Shown piece after piece: positions 4,143-26,608 of a DNA stretch of 34,317 bases. This DNA is from Nanobdellota archaeon (GTDB lineage: Archaea > Nanobdellota > Nanobdellia > Woesearchaeales > GW2011-AR9), in the NCBI GenBank assembly GCA_018812355.1, contig JAHJDQ010000122.1:1-34317 (forward strand), read 5' to 3'. The notes below the pieces were generated by a model. That model was given only the letters and a program-made list of their open reading frames with translations. It ran no database searches and was not told where the DNA came from. Within the stretch, counting starts at the first letter, position 1, and every line of letters begins with the position of its first letter. A program made the translations under genes and the position numbers.

Positions 4143-6442
4143 CTCCCTTTCTCCGTCAACTCTTCCCTTTCCGCATCTAACATTAATTTCTTCTCAACTC
4201 TAGCTACAACATGCCGAATTTCCTGAATTGCATCGATATTAGCCGAAATACTATCAACCCCTTGATGTACTAAAAATTTGGCCATTTCTGGATCTGAACC
4301 AGCCTGTCCGCAAATACTACTCTTTACTCCATACTTCTGACAAACTTTAATTACTTTAGCGATCTCACCCAAAACAGCCGGATGCAGTTCATCAAAATGT
4401 TTAGCAATCATACTATTGTTTCGATCTAATCCTAAAGTTAACTGTGTTAGATCATTCGTTCCAAAACTAACAAAATCTATCCCCTCTTGACATAACTCTT
4501 CCATAATCCAGCAAGCCGCCGGAGTCTCGACCATAATTCCGAAATCAACATCTTGCGATGGTTCCAAACCAACAGAACGCATTATTTCTTTCGCTTTCTT
4601 AACTTCGTTTACATTAATAATAAAAGGCAACATCACCCCAACATTATCTAGACCTTCATCATGTAATTCTTTGATTGCCTGAAACTCCGCTTTCAATATC
4701 CTAGGTTCATCAAGTAAACGACGAATCGCATGCCAACCAATCATCGGATCGGTTTCTTTTGGCTATTTATCACCCCCTTGTAACCCACGATACTCATCAG
4801 TCCTTAAATCAGAACATCTGACCCATACTGGTTTGTGCTGAAACGCTTTAGCAATCTTACCAATTCCCTCTTTTAACAGATTAACATAATCCTGATCTTT
4901 ATCCTGGCGAATATATTCTGCCGGATGCACTCCTCCCTTAGCAATAATGATTTCTAACCTCACCAACCCAATGCCATCAGCATGCGTTGTTGCTGCCCTC
5001 TCAGCAGCTTCTGGTAAATCTAAAATTAGTTTTATTTCTGTAGCTGTAATTATTTCCTCTCCAGAAACCACAGTCTTAACCAGTTCTTCTTTAATTTTTA
5101 TTTTTCCTTCGTAAACAATACCCTTAGTTGCATGCACTGTAATTATTTGTCCATCCTGCAAAACCTCAGTGGCATGTTCCGTCCCCACAACACAAGGAAT
5201 CCCCATCTCTCGCGAAACAATCGCCGCATGACAAGTCATTCCACCTTCATTAGTAACAATTGCCCCCGCTTTCTGCATTGCCGGCACCCAATCAGGAGTA
5301 GTCATCTTCGCAACTAAAATATCACCTTTTCCAACTTTACTTAACTCAGCCGGACTGTTAACCACTTTTACCGGTCCAGCATAAACTCCTCGCGAAGCTG
5401 TTTCACCTTTTAACAAAATTTTCCCTGCTCCCTCTACATCAAGAGAACGCTCCTCTTTTTTTTCTTTAAATGTGGTTACCGCACGAGATTGTACAATATA
5501 AATTTCATTTTTTTCAATTGCCCATTCAATATCCTGTGGTAAGTTATAATGCTCTTCAATTTTTTTGCCTAACCGGGCCAATTCTTTAATCTGAGAATCT
5601 GGCACAATCTGTCTTGTTTGTAACTCTTCAGGAATTTTTCGGTTCTCATTCTCTCCTTCTTCATTCCGATACATCCCAATCTCCTGTTTCTTCACTTCAA
5701 TTTTTTTAATCGTTTTAGTTTCCTTATCCACTAAATAAAAATCGGGACTCACTGTTCCTGAAACAATCATCTCCCCTAATCCATAAACTGCTTCAATGAC
5801 AATTTCATTTTCAACATTAGTCGATGGATTAACTGTAAACATCACTCCAGAAGTTTCTGAATTAACCATTTTCTGCACAATCGCCGAGATCAACACTTTA
5901 TCCTGGGCAAACTTGTTTTTTTCCCGATAATAAATAGCTCTTGCCGTAAATAAACTTGCCCAACACGCTCTTACTGCCGCAACCACATTATCTTTTCCTT
6001 TAATGTTTAAATAAGTAGCTTGCTGTCCAGCAAAAGAAGCATCTGGTAAATCTTCCGCCGTTGCCGAACTTCTTACTGCTACAAAAACATCCTCAACTTC
6101 TAATAAATCATGCGCATCTTTTCCTGCTCCTAACAATTCATAATTATCTTTGATCTCTTCAATAATCTCTTCCGGGATTTCTGTAGCAATAATCAACTCT
6201 TGAATTTTCCTGGCGACTGCTTGTAAATTTTCCGTTTCTTCAATCTTTAATCCTATTAACAATTCCTGAATCTTATTTTTTATTCCTGTTTTTTCAATAA
6301 AATATCCATAACCTTGCGCCGTAACTGCAAATCCTGGTGGAACCGGCAGGCCAAGATTAAACATAATCCCTAAATTCTTGCCCTTACCTCCTACTGAACC
6401 AATATCTTTCTCAGAAATATCTTTAAACCATTTAACATACAT
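4139..6442 (-). pseudogene. ppsA: Phosphoenolpyruvate synthase, full length but interrupted by one in-frame TAG at 4763-4765 (nonsense allele, read-through or sequence error)
   Basis: VGGKG..LG, AVRSSATAEDLP.ASFAGQ, phospho-His GGMTCHAAIVSRE, then SFGTNDLTQ and SICGQA in the downstream ORF. The two ORFs are in frame: ...GGDK*PKETDPMIGW... Confidence 0.9.
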
Positions 6443-13612: not shown

Positions 13613-13693
13613 CTCTATCCGAGGTTGTCCAGTGGGTGAGTGGCTTTTTTTTTACGTTCAAATAAACTTAGAATAAGTGTGGGGAGTGGCTCT

Positions 13694-16199: not shown

Positions 16200-19100
16200 T
16201 CTTGATTCTCAACATCCTCACTAGAATCATCTTCCTCATTATTTAGTTCATCAGTATCTTCTTCAACCGGATCTTCTTCAGTAGCTTCTTCAACCTCTTC
16301 CCTAATCTCTTCAGAAACTTCATCAATTACTTCAGCTTCTCCAACAACAACTTCTTCCTCATTGCTCTCGACGATTTCATCACTATCTTCGACGACAATC
16401 TTCGCCGAAGCTGCTAAAGTATCACCTTCATTCATCCGCATTACCCGAACTCCCTGCGTCGCTCGACCAATTACAGAAATACTAGAAACGGGTATCCTAA
16501 TTCCAATTCCTTCCCGAGAAATTAACATTAACTCTTCTTCCTCACCATCAACTAATTTCACTGATTGCACCCAGCCATTCTTAGAAGTAATTTTTATATT
16601 TGTAACACCTTTACCACCACGATTACATAAACGGTACTCTGTAACTGGCGTTCTTTTACCATAACCTTTCTCAGTTAAGGTCAGAATGTTCTTACCTTCT
16701 TCTGCCACTAACATCCCGACAACTTCATCCCCAGAACGTAACCTAATTCCTCTAACTCCTCTTGCCGTCCGACCCATATGCCGAACATCCTGTTCCCTAA
16801 AACGGTTCGCCCAACCAAGTTTAGTTGCTAAAATAATCTCTTGCAATCCTGTCGTCCCTTTAACCCCAATTAAACTATCTCCCTCATCTAAATTAACTGC
16901 TCTGATTCCACCTTTCCTAGGACGAGAAAATTCAATTAATGGTGTTTTCTTCACAGTACCTTTTTTTGTCGCCATGAACAAATAACCTTCCGCAAAATCT
17001 TTCACTGGAACAACCGCTGTAATATTTTCCCCAGGAGACATTTGTAAAAGATTAGCAACATGTTTCCCTTTTGCCTGTCGACTAGTTTCCGGAATGTTAT
17101 AAACTTTCAACCAATAAACCTGACTTTGGTCTGTAAAAAACAACAAATAATCATGCGTCGAAACCACATAAAGATTTTCTAAAAAGTCTTCATCTTTCGT
17201 TCCTGCTGCTTTAACCCCTTTTCCGCCCCGTCTTTGCGTTTTATAAGTGTCTAAAGGTAACCTTTTTACATAACCAGAATGGGTCATCGTCACAACAACA
17301 GAACTTTCTTCAATCAAATCCTCTAAATCAATATACTCATCCTCACCAGCAACAATTCTTGATCTTCTTTTATCCCCATAATCAGTTTTAATATCTTCTA
17401 ATTCTTCTTTAATCAAACCTAATACTTTCTCCTCAGAACCTAAAATATCTTGATAATAGTTAATTTTCTCTAGTAATTCTTGGTGCTCATCGCGAATTTT
17501 TTCTTGTTCTAAAGAAGCTAATTTCTGCAAGCGCATTTCTAAAATGGCCTTTGCCTGAATTTCAGAAAGTTTATACTTGCCCATCAAAAAGTTCTTGGCT
17601 TCCTCAACTGTACGTGACTGTTTAATCTCAGGAATAATTTGATCAATATTATCTAAAGCAATTAATAATCCCTCTAACACATGAACCCTTTTCTCGGCCT
17701 GTTCTAAATCGTATTGTGTTCTCCTAATAATCACATCTTTCCTGTGCTTAATGTGTTCAGAAATAATTTCTTTCAATCCCAATAATTTTGGTTGATTGCC
17801 CACTAAAGCCAATAAATTAATTCCAAAAGTAACTTTTAAACGACTATATTTATACAACTGATTCAAGACCACATTCGGATCAACATCTTTCTTCAAATCA
17901 ATTACAACTCTAATTCCTTCCCGATCTGATTCATCATTAATGTTTCTGATTCCGGGAACTTTTTTATTTTTCACCAACTCAGCAATATGAATAATCAAAT
18001 CGGCTTTGTTAACTTGATAAGGAACTTCTTTAATCACAATTTTATTTCCTTCAATCTCACTAATCGCTTTAATGGTTACTTTTCCTTTCCCTTTAGCATA
18101 AGCATACTTTAAGGCATCTCCACAAGCTACCTCCCCCCCAGTCGGAAAATCAGGACCAGGAATAATTTGCATTAACTCATCAACAGAAATATCAGGATTA
18201 TTAATTGTTTGAATCACTGCTTCACAAACTTCCGAAACATTATGTGGAGGAATATTCGTCGCCATTCCTACAGCAATTCCAGAAGAACCATTAATCAATA
18301 AATTAGGTAACTTGTTTGGTAAGACCGTCGGCTCTTCTAATGAACTGTCAAAATTAGGTTTAAAATCAACCGTATTTTTCTCAATATCTTTTAATAATTC
18401 CCCGGCAATTTTTTGTAATTTTGCTTCCGTATTGTGATTAACAAAACCATTAGCGATAAAGGAATGACAATGACTATCAACCCTAATAGAATAAACTTCT
18501 TCTTTTGGACACTTTGTAATTGTTTTAACTTTGTTAAAAAGGAAATTATTTTTAAGTAACCAGTTAATTAACGATTGATCATGTGGATTTAAAATAGTTT
18601 TTAGTTTTGTAAGGTTTTTTTGTAAGTTGTTATAACGATCAAAATTATTTTTTTTAATAAAATAATTTTTATAGTTCTTACGCAAATACTGATTGAGATA
18701 AGGGATGTAATCAAGCTTACTCATTCGACTTAAATTGGCCGATTCAACTTCTTTTAAGATTTCTTTTTTTCTCAGAGAAAAAAAGCCAATTTCTTTCTTA
18801 AAAATAAGAACATTAGATGCTTTAGGAATAATTAAACGAAAACAATTATTCCTCTTATCAGACCGGGGAGCACTTGTAATAATTCCAAAATTTAATAGAA
18901 CAACTTTCAATTGATCAATCAACTTTTTACTTTTGGAATCATAAAATAAGTGCATTGATTTTCCGCCATGTCGACGGTCAGTAACACACTTAACAGAACC
19001 ATCACCTTCATATAAAGCTTGGAGAAAGCTTTTGATAACTTCTTTTTTTGATTTAAGAATAATGTGAGGTATCTCTTTAAAATCTGACTTTACTTTCTTT

Positions 19101-24466: not shown

Positions 24467-24934
24467 ATGACCAAGCATAAGACTGCGCATCGAAAGAGAA
24501 CCCATAAATATACCCCTAGGCATCATACCTCTAAACCTAAAGAAAAAGAGCCAAATTATATGGTACAGATTAATGAACCTAATGTTTTAAGAAAAGATAT
24601 CTTAGAAGGATTAAAAGAAACTATCATTTTTATGCAAGGTTATGCTGAATTTAAAACCATTCAAATAGAAAAAGTTGATCTTTACGGTTTTTTAAAAGAT
24701 CAAATTAAAGAATTGCAAGGACTAGTTAATAATCTTAAAAAATATTTACCACAAGGTAAATTAGAACTCGTCGTGCCAGGAGAAAAGAAACGATTAATAA
24801 ATCCAGTGGCTAAAACAGTGAACCACGTCCCACCCTCAACAAGGACGGATCACCCAACATCTGTAGCAAGTGAATTAGATGAACTGGAAATATCGTTAAA
24901 AGATATTGAAAGTCAGCTGCAAACACTGAATTAA
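24467..24934 (+). CDS. Hypothetical coiled-coil protein
   Basis: Basic His-rich N-terminus, YMVQINEP..LRKDILE, C-terminal ELDELE.SL.DIE..L helix. An alternative TTG start lies at 24461. Confidence 0.75.
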   Translation: MTKHKTAHRKRTHKYTPRHHTSKPKEKEPNYMVQINEPNVLRKDILEGLKETIIFMQGYAEFKTIQIEKVDLYGFLKDQIKELQGLVNNLKKYLPQGKLELVVPGEKKRLINPVAKTVNHVPPSTRTDHPTSVASELDELEISLKDIESQLQTLN

Positions 24935-24953
24935 TTTTCTTTTTTACAATAAT

Positions 24954-24961
24954 TTTATAAA
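24954..24961 (+). promoter_or_regulatory. TATA box of tRNA-Leu
   Basis: TTTATAAA ending 26 bp before tRNA position 1. Confidence 0.7.
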
Positions 24962-24986
24962 ACAATTCGAGTATTTTCTATGATAT

Positions 24987-25088
24987 GTGCGCGTGCCGGA
25001 GTGGTCAAACTCTTGATGAGGACTAAACGGACTGGACTCAAAATCCAGTGACTTAGTGTCTACGCAGGTTCGAGCCCTGCCGCGCACA
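24987..25088 (+). tRNA. tRNA-Leu(CAA) with an 18-nt D-loop intron; CCA not encoded
   Basis: Acceptor GTGCGCG/CGCGCAC+A, anticodon arm CTGGA-CT CAA AA-TCCAG (CAA at 25039-25041), long variable arm, T arm GCAGG-TTCGAGC-CCTGC; 84 nt after splicing. Confidence 0.95.
25009..25026 (+). other. Non-canonical tRNA intron (position about 21/22) with BHB-type motif
   Basis: Helix GGTC/GACT flanked by two AAA bulges, inner stem CTC/GAG; removal restores GAGTGGTCAAACGG. Confidence 0.85.
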
Positions 25089-25120
25089 TTTCTTTTTTGC
25101 ATTCACGTAGTTGAGGGTTG

Positions 25121-25141
25121 ATAAGGGCAGACTGCCCTTAT
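25121..25141. repeat. Perfect inverted repeat (10-bp arms, 1-nt spacer)
   Basis: ATAAGGGCAG-A-CTGCCCTTAT. Confidence 0.9.
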
Positions 25142-25146
25142 GCGCG

Positions 25147-25215
25147 GTGCTTACGCAGGTTCGAGTGACATTAAATCACGTTAGGGATTTATGGCCGAAT
25201 ACCCTGCTACCCACA
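25147..25215 (+). tRNA. Orphan tRNA-Leu-like 3' half with a 36-nt T-loop intron (25166-25201); split-tRNA half or relic; 5' boundary approximate
   Basis: GTGCTTAC-GCAGG-TTCGAG[intron]C-CCTGC-TACCCAC-A followed by T9; canonical BHB; no D arm, anticodon arm or GTGGGTR 5' strand adjacent. Confidence 0.75.
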
Positions 25216-25267
25216 TTTTTTTTTAATTTGTAGGTATCTTTTTAAACCAAAACGAAATAACTAACCC

Positions 25268-26608
25268 ATGCCCATAGAAATATGTACAATTAGCGGTTAT
25301 TCTGTTACTGGAGGAAATTCTACTGCAATTAAAATCGATGACGAAGTTGTTATTCTCGATATGGGCCTACATATGGAAAATTATATCCGTTATACTGAAA
25401 ACGAAGATATTCGTAAACTTACTTATCCAGAATTGCTAAAAGTTAAAGCTGTTCCTGATTACAAATTAATCAAAGATTGGCGTAAGAATGTTATTGGGAT
25501 CATACCCAGCCACGGCCATCTTGATCATATCGGCGCAATCCCTTTCTCCGCCGATTTATTTCCTAATGCTCCAGTTATCTGTACGCCTTATACTGCCGAA
25601 GTATTAAGAAGTATTTTCCAAGATGAACGAATTAAAATACCTAATCAACTGATTCCACTTAACCTTAACTCAATCTACAAACTCTCGGAAAAGATACAAG
25701 TAGAGTTAGTTAACGTTACCCATTCCATTCCGCACGCTTCTTTAATTGTTTTACATACTCCCTATGGAAAAATTGTTTACGCTAATGATTATAAGTTTGA
25801 TCGACAACCCACCTTAGGCAAGAAACCTAATTTTGAAAGATTAAAACAAATTGGCGAAGAAGGTGTTTTATTATTAATTGTGGAATCACTCTATGCTCAT
25901 GAAGACCGGAAAATGCCTTCCGAATCCGTGGCTAAACAAATGTTAAAAGATGTTATGTTAGGAGTACATGCTGACGGAAAAGCAATGTTTGTGACAACTT
26001 TTTCTTCCCACCTTGCTAGACTCAAAAGTATCGTTGAACTTGGTAAAAAACTAAACCGTGAGATTATTTTTATTGGAAGATCACTTTCTAAGTACGTTAC
26101 CGCTGGACAAAGAATTGATTTAATTAATTTTGAAAACGATGTTAAGATCTTCAAACACCGTGATAAAGTTGAAAAAATTCTTAACAAAATAATGCGCGAA
26201 GGAAAAGAAAAATACTTGATTGTTTGTACCGGCCATCAAGGCGAACCTAAAGCGGTTCTATCCCGTTTATCAAGAAAAGAACTTCCTTTTAAATTTAATA
26301 ATGGTGATGTCGTTATCTTCAGCTGCTCCGTCATTCCGGTTGAACTAAACAAAGACAACCGTGACAAATTAGAAAAACAATTAAGAAGCCACGGAGTAAG
26401 AATTTTTCGCGATATTCATGTTTCTGGTCACGCCGCCCGCGAAGACCATCGTGACTTGATCGAATTGATCAAACCGAAACATATCCTCCCCTCTCACGGA
26501 GGAAAAGAAAAAGCCGCTGCCATGGTCAACTTAGCTCAAGAAATGGGCTTCCACCAAGGTAAAACTGTCCATGTGATGAGTAATGGAAAAAGACTAACCT
26601 TAAAGTAG
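25268..26608 (+). CDS. rnj: Ribonuclease J (archaeal beta-CASP)
   Basis: LDMG, SHGHLDHIGA, VTHSIP, DYKFD, TTFSSHLAR, TGHQGEP, HVSGHA, PSHG. Confidence 0.95.
   Translation: MPIEICTISGYSVTGGNSTAIKIDDEVVILDMGLHMENYIRYTENEDIRKLTYPELLKVKAVPDYKLIKDWRKNVIGIIPSHGHLDHIGAIPFSADLFPNAPVICTPYTAEVLRSIFQDERIKIPNQLIPLNLNSIYKLSEKIQVELVNVTHSIPHASLIVLHTPYGKIVYANDYKFDRQPTLGKKPNFERLKQIGEEGVLLLIVESLYAHEDRKMPSESVAKQMLKDVMLGVHADGKAMFVTTFSSHLARLKSIVELGKKLNREIIFIGRSLSKYVTAGQRIDLINFENDVKIFKHRDKVEKILNKIMREGKEKYLIVCTGHQGEPKAVLSRLSRKELPFKFNNGDVVIFSCSVIPVELNKDNRDKLEKQLRSHGVRIFRDIHVSGHAAREDHRDLIELIKPKHILPSHGGKEKAAAMVNLAQEMGFHQGKTVHVMSNGKRLTLK

Follow-up and report, generated by a model that had tools for sequence, protein, structure and literature searches.

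Is a free 3' end of a tRNA gene, complete with intron and terminator, one half of a split tRNA, or is it what remains of a gene that has been replaced? The question is raised by the window analysed here, a 34,317-nt stretch of DNA that makes up contig C41 of G000, the genome of a Nanobdellota archaeon (1.6 Mb, 33.5% G+C, 213 contigs, 92% complete). Between a working tRNA-Leu(CAA) gene (24987-25088) and the gene for an RNase J protein (25268-26608), its plus strand contains the 3' part of a second tRNA-Leu gene (25147-25215), referred to below as the orphan, which is preceded by a short hairpin-forming element, E (25105-25146). A first-pass annotation of the window had proposed that the orphan belongs to a split tRNA and is joined in trans to a 5' half encoded elsewhere. 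The comparisons described here indicate that it is probably a non-functional leftover, the 3' end of an old tRNA-Leu gene lying beside E. Genomes, loci and contigs are numbered throughout as Gnnn, Lnnn and Cnnn, respectively.

The orphan and the allele it matches

The orphan corresponds to the final third of a tRNA-Leu of class II and contains a bulge-helix-bulge (BHB) intron of 36 nt at position 59/60, a known split or permutation site, as in the permuted tRNAs of Thermofilum. Its first exon (25147-25165) comprises the 3' strand of the variable arm, GTGCTTAC, the 5' strand of the T stem and T-loop positions 54-59. The intron follows (25166-25201), and the second exon (25202-25215) contains T-loop position 60 and the 3' strand of the T stem (C + CCTGC, 25202-25207), the acceptor strand TACCCAC (25208-25214) and the discriminator A (25215). 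A T9 run (25216-25224) separates it from the promoter region and gene of RNase J. The 14-nt sequence TACGCAGGTTCGAG, found at 25061-25074 within the working gene, is repeated exactly at 25152-25165, and removing the insert yields a T arm identical to that of the working gene. In all, 28 of 33 exon positions match between the two, and E is flanked by two copies of the tRNA 3' part in direct orientation. The first-pass annotation had identified the piece and its parts correctly.

The insert was also rightly recognized as a BHB-type intron. In the minimum free energy (MFE) fold of 25152-25215, the pairs GCAGG/CCUGC and UUCG/CGAA are formed and UAC is a 3-nt bulge on the 3' side. The 5' side shows a 1-nt bulge and two extra pairs rather than the 3-nt AGU bulge, though the canonical BHB can be drawn equally well. 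So modelled, the insert has the features of an archaeal BHB intron: a 4-bp helix lies between two 3-nt bulges, and the predicted cuts would restore a 7-nt T loop. When the insert was shuffled with its composition kept, the BHB core, defined as a 4-bp central helix (G-U allowed) with two of three inner pairs, was retained in 1,172 of 100,000 cases (1.2%). A related intron, with a 19-nt exact match at its 5' end and the same ends, occupies the T-loop site of an intact multi-intron tRNA gene of G000 (C200), and introns are found at the same T-loop site in same-locus relatives (L074, L075, L047 and L063).

No 5' tRNA part accompanies the orphan. A permissive Rfam scan gave no tRNA-like match over 25089-25260, in keeping with the earlier remark that neither a D nor an anticodon arm lies nearby, and the 58 nt between the working gene and the orphan (25089-25146) contain no open reading frame (ORF). 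A permuted tRNA is ruled out, as there is no 5' part downstream before RNase J begins at 25268, and a minus-strand reading of the orphan is ruled out by the T-loop consensus and the T-run on the plus strand. Misassembly is unlikely, because contigs from two samples of one study have the same arrangement: one of 5,014 nt from run X1, which may be the source run, spans 24700-25399, and one of 272 nt from run X3, another sample of the study, spans 24929-25200, both with no differences to the window. A contig of run X2 that seemed to skip 24960-25216 was set aside, since one of its sides consists of only 21 letters and is A/T-rich.

The order tRNA-Leu(CAA)-RNase J is conserved in the Woesearchaeales family to which G000 belongs, and the genes at this locus provide the closest matches to the orphan. 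Against the tRNA-Leu(CAA) that precedes RNase J in L074, L075 and L051, its joined exons show one difference in 33 bases; against the tRNA-Leu(UAG) of G000 (C141) they show two, and against the working neighbour five. The first two of these loci are among the closest relatives of the window by RNase J, with 78% identity in that protein. The acceptors of all three genes are GTGGGTG/CACCCAC, and GTGGGTG fits the orphan strand TACCCAC with one G-U pair; the first-pass annotation had anticipated a GTGGGT(A/G) partner, and same-locus genes in relatives do start in this way. Two of the three closest-matching genes (L074 and L075) also have an intron at the orphan's T-loop site, and the flank at the T9 run resembles, by eye, the trailer of the same-locus tRNA in L074. 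The T arms of the orphan and the working gene are identical, and all differences between the two fall in the variable stem and the acceptor, whose 3' strands pair with the 5' part of the molecule. This pattern, together with the match to relatives, indicates that the orphan and the gene before it stem from different alleles, and the orphan would most simply be the former resident of the locus. The GTGCGCG/CGCGCAC acceptor type of the working gene is found also in G016 and G022.

Element E and duplicated tRNA ends

When 25095-25225 was compared by BLAST with 61 related genomes, matches fell mainly in the supposed leader of the orphan, often several per genome. The recurring unit, E, consists of a degenerate block (25105-25116), GAGG+GTTG (25113-25120), a 9-bp hairpin with a 3-nt loop (25121-25141) and the linker GCGCG (25142-25146). 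Its core pattern, GTTGATAAGGG followed by 3-9 free bases and CCCTTAT (25117-25141 in the window), was matched 71 times in the 114 genomes of the family that were searched, 35 of which contain it, and not at all when reversed as a control; G000 holds a single copy. In an alignment of 41 copies the two stem pairs that the pattern leaves free covary (CG 24/GC 15 in one, AU 27/GC 6/CG 4/UA 2 in the other), 97.3% of stem cells are paired, and the covariation score was reached by none of 500 shuffles. A pairing of GUAG...AGGGU with ACCCU...CUAC, which appears in the MFE fold of 25099-25215, was taken as chance and is lost, by eye, in sister loci such as L009. Neither at the gathering nor at permissive thresholds does Rfam contain a family for E or the orphan, and a literature search that did not extend to supplements yielded nothing on the motif or on a hairpin module common to T-loop introns and exon duplications.

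The contexts of E were determined by reading the flanks of 59 distinct copies (39, and a further 20 from four E-rich genomes) by eye. In 36 cases E lies behind a tRNA gene and is followed by a second copy of that gene's end, the order being tRNA, T-rich trailer, E in the orientation of the tRNA, 0-9 nt and the duplicate end. In a further 16 cases E is part of a T-loop intron in a tRNA gene that looks intact. There the hairpin adjoins the 5' splice site and forms the first inner stem of a canonical BHB intron; four of these introns, cut out by script, showed the textbook arrangement (5-bp T stem, 4-bp helix, two 3-nt bulges). Two more copies of E are in anticodon-loop introns, four stand behind a tRNA without a copy, and one context is unclear. 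One of the 36 cases, L010, presents the mirror image at a 5' end, and tandem arrays occur in L006, L025 and L173. The window itself conforms to the commonest layout over 24987-25224 (tRNA, T-rich trailer, GRGG-GTTG-hairpin, linker, tRNA 3' copy, T-run), as do sister loci including L002, L009, L011, L017, L022, L023, L028 and L165. The association with duplicated ends is also seen when repeats are scored: a score of at least 15 was obtained for 16 of 38 E copies and 3 of 114 mismatched-pair controls, and a score of at least 20 for 12 of 38 and 1 of 114, respectively, the controls being inflated because many of the loci are Leu genes with a common T arm (3 of the 41 copies were dropped for short flanks).

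The duplicates behind E measure 13-58 nt, and many comprise only the 3' strand of the T stem and the acceptor strand. They usually begin at an intron-prone site (T-loop 59/60, the variable arm of Leu genes or the D loop). Behind genes that contain a T-loop intron, the copy begins precisely with the 3' exon (L015, L019, L026, L040, L166, L173 and L175), and behind Leu genes it begins within the variable arm, the place of an insert in L087. Most duplicates extend beyond the discriminator into the first T-run. A second regularity, noted by eye, concerns the junction: in all 11 copies whose hairpin abuts the T-stem 3' strand (L015, L019, L026, L039, L040, L166, three in L173, L174 and L175), positions 6-7 after the hairpin are AG, and the working copy has CG or GG there. 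At two loci the duplicate differs in type from the gene before it. The acceptor types of the two copies are unlike in L003, and upstream of RNase J in G017 a tRNA-Leu(CAA) is followed by a degenerate E, GCGCG+GTGACTAC, an ORF and then a 3'-exon piece with a different acceptor type. Viral contigs contain the E pattern in five stretches, of which three (two identical) are apparently coding and two have a G-rich run before the pattern; in the flanks examined, none of the five had a tRNA end.

Two side observations may be added. Long T-loop introns of relatives (L013, L017, L026 and L034) have in common a block of ~55 nt with a hairpin and pseudoknot-like complementarity, which may be a structured RNA or another element. 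In L030 (G106:C22, ~347-1080) a LAGLIDADG ORF is bracketed by a 16-nt duplicate of a tRNA-Leu 5' end that stops in the D loop, and E units also lie behind the 3' end of this tRNA-Leu gene.

Origin of the orphan

A leftover is favoured by the recurrence of the layout, the conserved hairpin, the exon-shaped duplicates and the match of the orphan to same-locus genes of relatives. The locus would once have held a GTGGGTG-type gene with a T-loop intron. Recombination at the intron site would then have set before the old 3' end a stretch of DNA that comprised an entire gene of the GTGCGCG type together with its trailer and E, and the orphan would now be silent. How this came about may be envisaged in several ways. 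A break at the intron site, induced by a homing endonuclease, may have been repaired from a donor allele with the cassette, the 5' part being co-converted as the cassette was copied; such a route would fit the unlike acceptor types. Alternatively, a recombinase may have integrated the DNA, or recombination may have involved a DNA copy of a spliced but unprocessed transcript, which would fit copies that run from splice site to terminator.

Several points weigh against this account. The orphan is well kept for an old relic, with T arm, BHB core and terminator intact, and compared with the intron of C200 the inner stem of its own intron has only one weakened pair. A relic under no constraint would be expected to degenerate in less time than a working tRNA needs to change three stem pairs; either, then, the event was recent and imported a working gene, or something preserves the piece. 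The proposed direction of the exchange, with the working gene as the newcomer, depends on same-locus relatives with only 78% RNase J identity. An enzyme is not always at hand either. Among five E-rich genomes, the only ones considered in this respect, Y1 transposase is found in two and LAGLIDADG_3 in four, and G003, 95% complete and with seven copies of E, has no match to LAGLIDADG_3 or Y1 transposase; there is thus no enzyme candidate in G003, and break repair is unsupported there. Lastly, tRNA-Leu(CAG) was not found in G000, whose assembly is 92% complete and in 213 contigs, and a partner for the orphan may therefore be missed.

This missing isoacceptor is also one of the arguments for a split tRNA, in which the orphan would be expressed and joined to a 5' half from a separate gene, as are the intact T arm, BHB intron, discriminator and T9 run, a leader related to intron sequence, as reported for the split tRNAs of Caldivirga, and the suspicion of split tRNAs in this phylum, which a preprint leaves open for the missing Trp and Val only (10.64898/2026.05.13.725050). 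Even so, a split tRNA is very improbable here. Of 111 GTGGGT(A/G) sites in G000, none is followed by a D arm. A Leu 5' probe used in a local BLAST search, complemented by a variable-arm scan, gave matches of at least 14 nt only in the three intact Leu genes of that D-arm type, so that no further Leu 5' part is apparent. Intact genes are present for CAA (window), UAA (C208), GAG (C88) and UAG (C141), and only CAG was not found. The 3' end itself is nearly duplicated in an intact gene, that of C141 (31 of 33 exon bases), and the same-locus genes of relatives are complete and have this 3' end. By eye, no TATA-like A/T box lies between 25089 and 25146. Co-transcription from the tRNA-Leu promoter, as proposed in the first pass, is made doubtful by the T-run at 25089-25098, which by reading lies in between. 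Nor is the leader complementary to the trailer of any 5' half: it folds on itself into a hairpin, occurs once in G000 and recurs in many genomes before simple duplicates. At the majority of sister loci the fragment repeats the end of the very gene upstream of it, and pieces of 13-58 nt are hard to reconcile with a functional tRNA half; the many that lack the 5' strand of the T stem cannot be halves at all. Least probable of the explanations considered is a backup 3' exon in cis, for which read-through transcripts of the working gene would have to lose that gene's own 3' end, the trailer and E as a single large intron. At sister loci that lack a T-loop intron, GTGRGAAT before the copy could, by reading, give a 4-bp helix with TTCA and a 3-nt bulge. 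In the window, however, no 3' half of a BHB precedes 25147, a T-run intervenes, and the orphan acceptor is mismatched to the working 5' strand at two of seven positions, with one G-U pair.

As a fallback, the first-pass annotation had offered a deletion relic or att-site remnant. A relic, or att-like remnant, is essentially what the evidence points to, but a classical att remnant is unlikely. On that account a tyrosine-integrase element carrying a tRNA-Leu 3' part integrated and was then almost wholly deleted, leaving the working gene as attL, ~60 nt including E, and the orphan as attR. Partial tRNA genes at integrated elements are common in archaea (PMC9897764), G000 has five Phage_integrase-family matches, the repeats often reach into the trailer, and some loci have cargo between the copies, namely 568 nt that include an ORF in L003, the PemK-like pair of C88 and the ORF of G017. 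Most E loci, however, have only 0-130 nt between the copies, and independent near-total deletions at dozens of loci are hard to credit. E also stands beside many tRNA species, each with its own duplicate, for which one attP would not suffice, and it occurs inside spliceable introns. No integrase lies near the locus in the window, and E-like matches in viral contigs are as rare as described above and without a neighbouring tRNA end in the flanks examined. Less probable still, though slightly ahead of a split tRNA, is that E and its tail form some other small functional RNA (a decoy, primer or processing signal), or that E is a selected DNA signal and the tail incidental. The covarying hairpin, a core identical across many genera and the invariant AG in the 11 abutting copies would be explained in this way, but a tail of 13-58 nt has no common fold, and E is found in both orientations relative to tRNAs.

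A leftover 3' end beside a repeated element has parallels among known systems, none of which fits throughout. Partial tRNA genes of the attR type, left by integrated elements in archaea and bacteria, are well known (PMC9897764). As in the window, complete and partial tRNA 3' copies in direct orientation bracket foreign DNA, and tRNA finders misread the fragment. In the window, by contrast, only ~60 nt are bracketed and there is no integrase, the same hairpin is found at many tRNA species, and the copies start at intron sites. In Caldiarchaeum subterraneum a tRNA-Thr fragment is associated with a 1.8-kb recombinase element, and the disruption model put forward for it (PMC3293823) ties intron gain and fragment scattering to a mobile element. 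There, too, a fragment lies beside an intact gene, in that case an intron-bearing one; the fragment is, however, a 5' one with a 1.8-kb recombinase-encoding element, and in the window it is a 3' one with a gene-less hairpin of ~35-45 nt. Crenarchaeota are on record as having split, closely spaced and permuted tRNAs as well as fragments attributed to integration (PMC3218864).

The split tRNAs of Nanoarchaeum equitans and Caldivirga and the closely spaced tRNA-Asp of Aeropyrum pernix resemble the window in having a free 3' piece with a terminator and an intron-related leader, but in those systems a 5' half that matches is present, each half has a promoter, and leader and trailer form a BHB duplex; none of this was found at the window. 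Non-canonical BHB introns at 59/60 are also known, as are related introns at several tRNAs ("intron transposition" in Thermoproteales). The orphan insert and the E-bearing T-loop introns likewise have a helix-bulge-helix-bulge-helix form at 59/60, and related introns occur in different tRNAs; the difference is that the E hairpin is found not only in introns but also beyond the genes, beside exon duplicates. E also recalls repetitive extragenic palindromic (REP) sequences and miniature inverted-repeat transposable elements (MITEs) in being short, multi-copy, hairpin-forming and gene-less, but it is strictly tied to tRNA genes (introns and trailers) and to exon duplication, and no transposase correlate was found.

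Tentatively, E may be the core of a small, gene-less, intron-derived mobile module that gives rise, at tRNA intron sites, to a BHB intron or an exon duplication, although on present evidence this is rather doubtful. If it holds, the window would be a natural intermediate that connects the gain and loss of introns with the replacement of tRNA genes and with a first step towards split ones. The fixed spacing of the AG, and the fact that the copies have the limits of an exon (splice site to terminator), would then be traces left by the mechanism. The orphan itself is a tRNA gene fragment of a known kind, and it is the wider pattern of E that is worth following. Across the family, E offers a countable system for how archaeal tRNA introns move and tRNA genes fragment, a question that has so far been based on a few cases (Caldiarchaeum, Caldivirga and Desulfurococcales). 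For annotation, orphan tRNA ends of DPANN archaea with perfect-looking introns should not be counted as split tRNAs or extra genes.

The working tRNA-Leu(CAA) and other tRNA loci of G000

The working tRNA-Leu(CAA) folds, at MFE, into a cloverleaf-like structure with a long variable arm and no T-loop intron. A putative TATA-like box, TTTTATAAAA (24953-24962, plus strand), is read ~25 nt upstream, and similar boxes precede the same gene in relatives. The D loop contains an 18-nt insert with a BHB-like fold (25009-25026, plus strand; the limits are ambiguous within an A run), in whose place relatives without the insert have GGTCAAACGG. The insert includes UGAUGA, which is C-box-like. Because of this insert, neither ARAGORN nor Rfam at its gathering score detects the gene: the Rfam tRNA score is 23.2 bits, under the cut-off, and in the permissive scan the tRNA-Sec model gave 27.9 bits over 24987-25087. 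The gene is followed by a T-rich trailer, TTTCTTTTTT (25089-25098, plus strand), which is a likely terminator, oligo-T termination being established in archaea.

Such omissions are general in G000. ARAGORN, with introns allowed, reports 18 tRNAs, and Rfam 21 with E values no higher than 1, 13 of them above its cut-off. The low yield is due to the many tRNA genes that carry several inserts, examples being the gene in C200, the tRNA-Leu(UAA) in C208 and the tRNA-Leu(UAG) in C141, and the tRNAs missing from G000 are mostly multi-intron genes overlooked by standard finders. The tRNA-Leu(UAA) gene (G000:C208, ~5000-5250, minus strand; L158) has three inserts, in the D loop, at 37/38 and in the T loop, and is missed by both ARAGORN and Rfam. 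Homologues of the adjacent RNase J protein come from metagenome-assembled genomes labelled Woesearchaeota, Nanoarchaeota or Nanoarchaeia, and some are wrongly labelled "Methanosarcinales".

Duplicated tRNA ends are found elsewhere in G000. Downstream copies of the last 14 nt accompany a tRNA-Ser (C69), tRNA-Leu(GAG) (C88), tRNA-Leu(UAG) (C141) and a tRNA-Arg (C157), and a 24-nt repeat of a tRNA 3' exon is seen at C111. At L156 (G000:C88:12450-13320, minus strand) tRNA-Leu(GAG) and a copy of its sequence from the T loop to the 3' end are separated by two ORFs, one for a PemK/MazF-like toxin and one with DUF7557. The tRNA-Leu(UAG) at L157 (G000:C141:5663-5804, minus strand), called Val by ARAGORN, has behind it a spacer of 52 nt and then 19 nt that repeat its 3' end and trailer; the same type of spacer recurs behind the tRNA-Leu(CAA) of L086. 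At L159 (G000:C157:14374-15400) an antisense LAGLIDADG ORF of 246 aa separates a tRNA-Arg from a 20-nt copy of its 3' end and trailer. G000 has 17 LAGLIDADG_3 matches, several of them short free-standing ORFs adjoining tRNA genes, and, in addition to the Phage_integrase-family matches mentioned above, one reverse-transcriptase match. The LAGLIDADG cassettes resemble the window in that a duplicated tRNA 3' exon brackets inserted DNA; unlike them, the unit in the window has no endonuclease gene, and E is unrelated in sequence to the block next to them. A 33-nt block is represented in the window at 13613-13645 (plus strand), with the TATA-like TTTATAAA just 5' and T9 just 3'. It has 13 strict copies in G000, two of which (C111:11633 and C157:15328) lie directly before a tRNA 3'-exon duplicate and several adjoin free-standing LAGLIDADG genes, and it may be a promoter module or the end of a cassette.

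Two minor observations remain. A LAGLIDADG_3 match at 18785-19039 of the window (minus strand) falls within an open frame of 1,320 aa and probably represents an intein. Three look-alike sequences of ~110 nt in G000 (C69:4311, C76:9624 and C163:1871) start with GTGGGTG and end with its complement, and may constitute a small structured RNA family.

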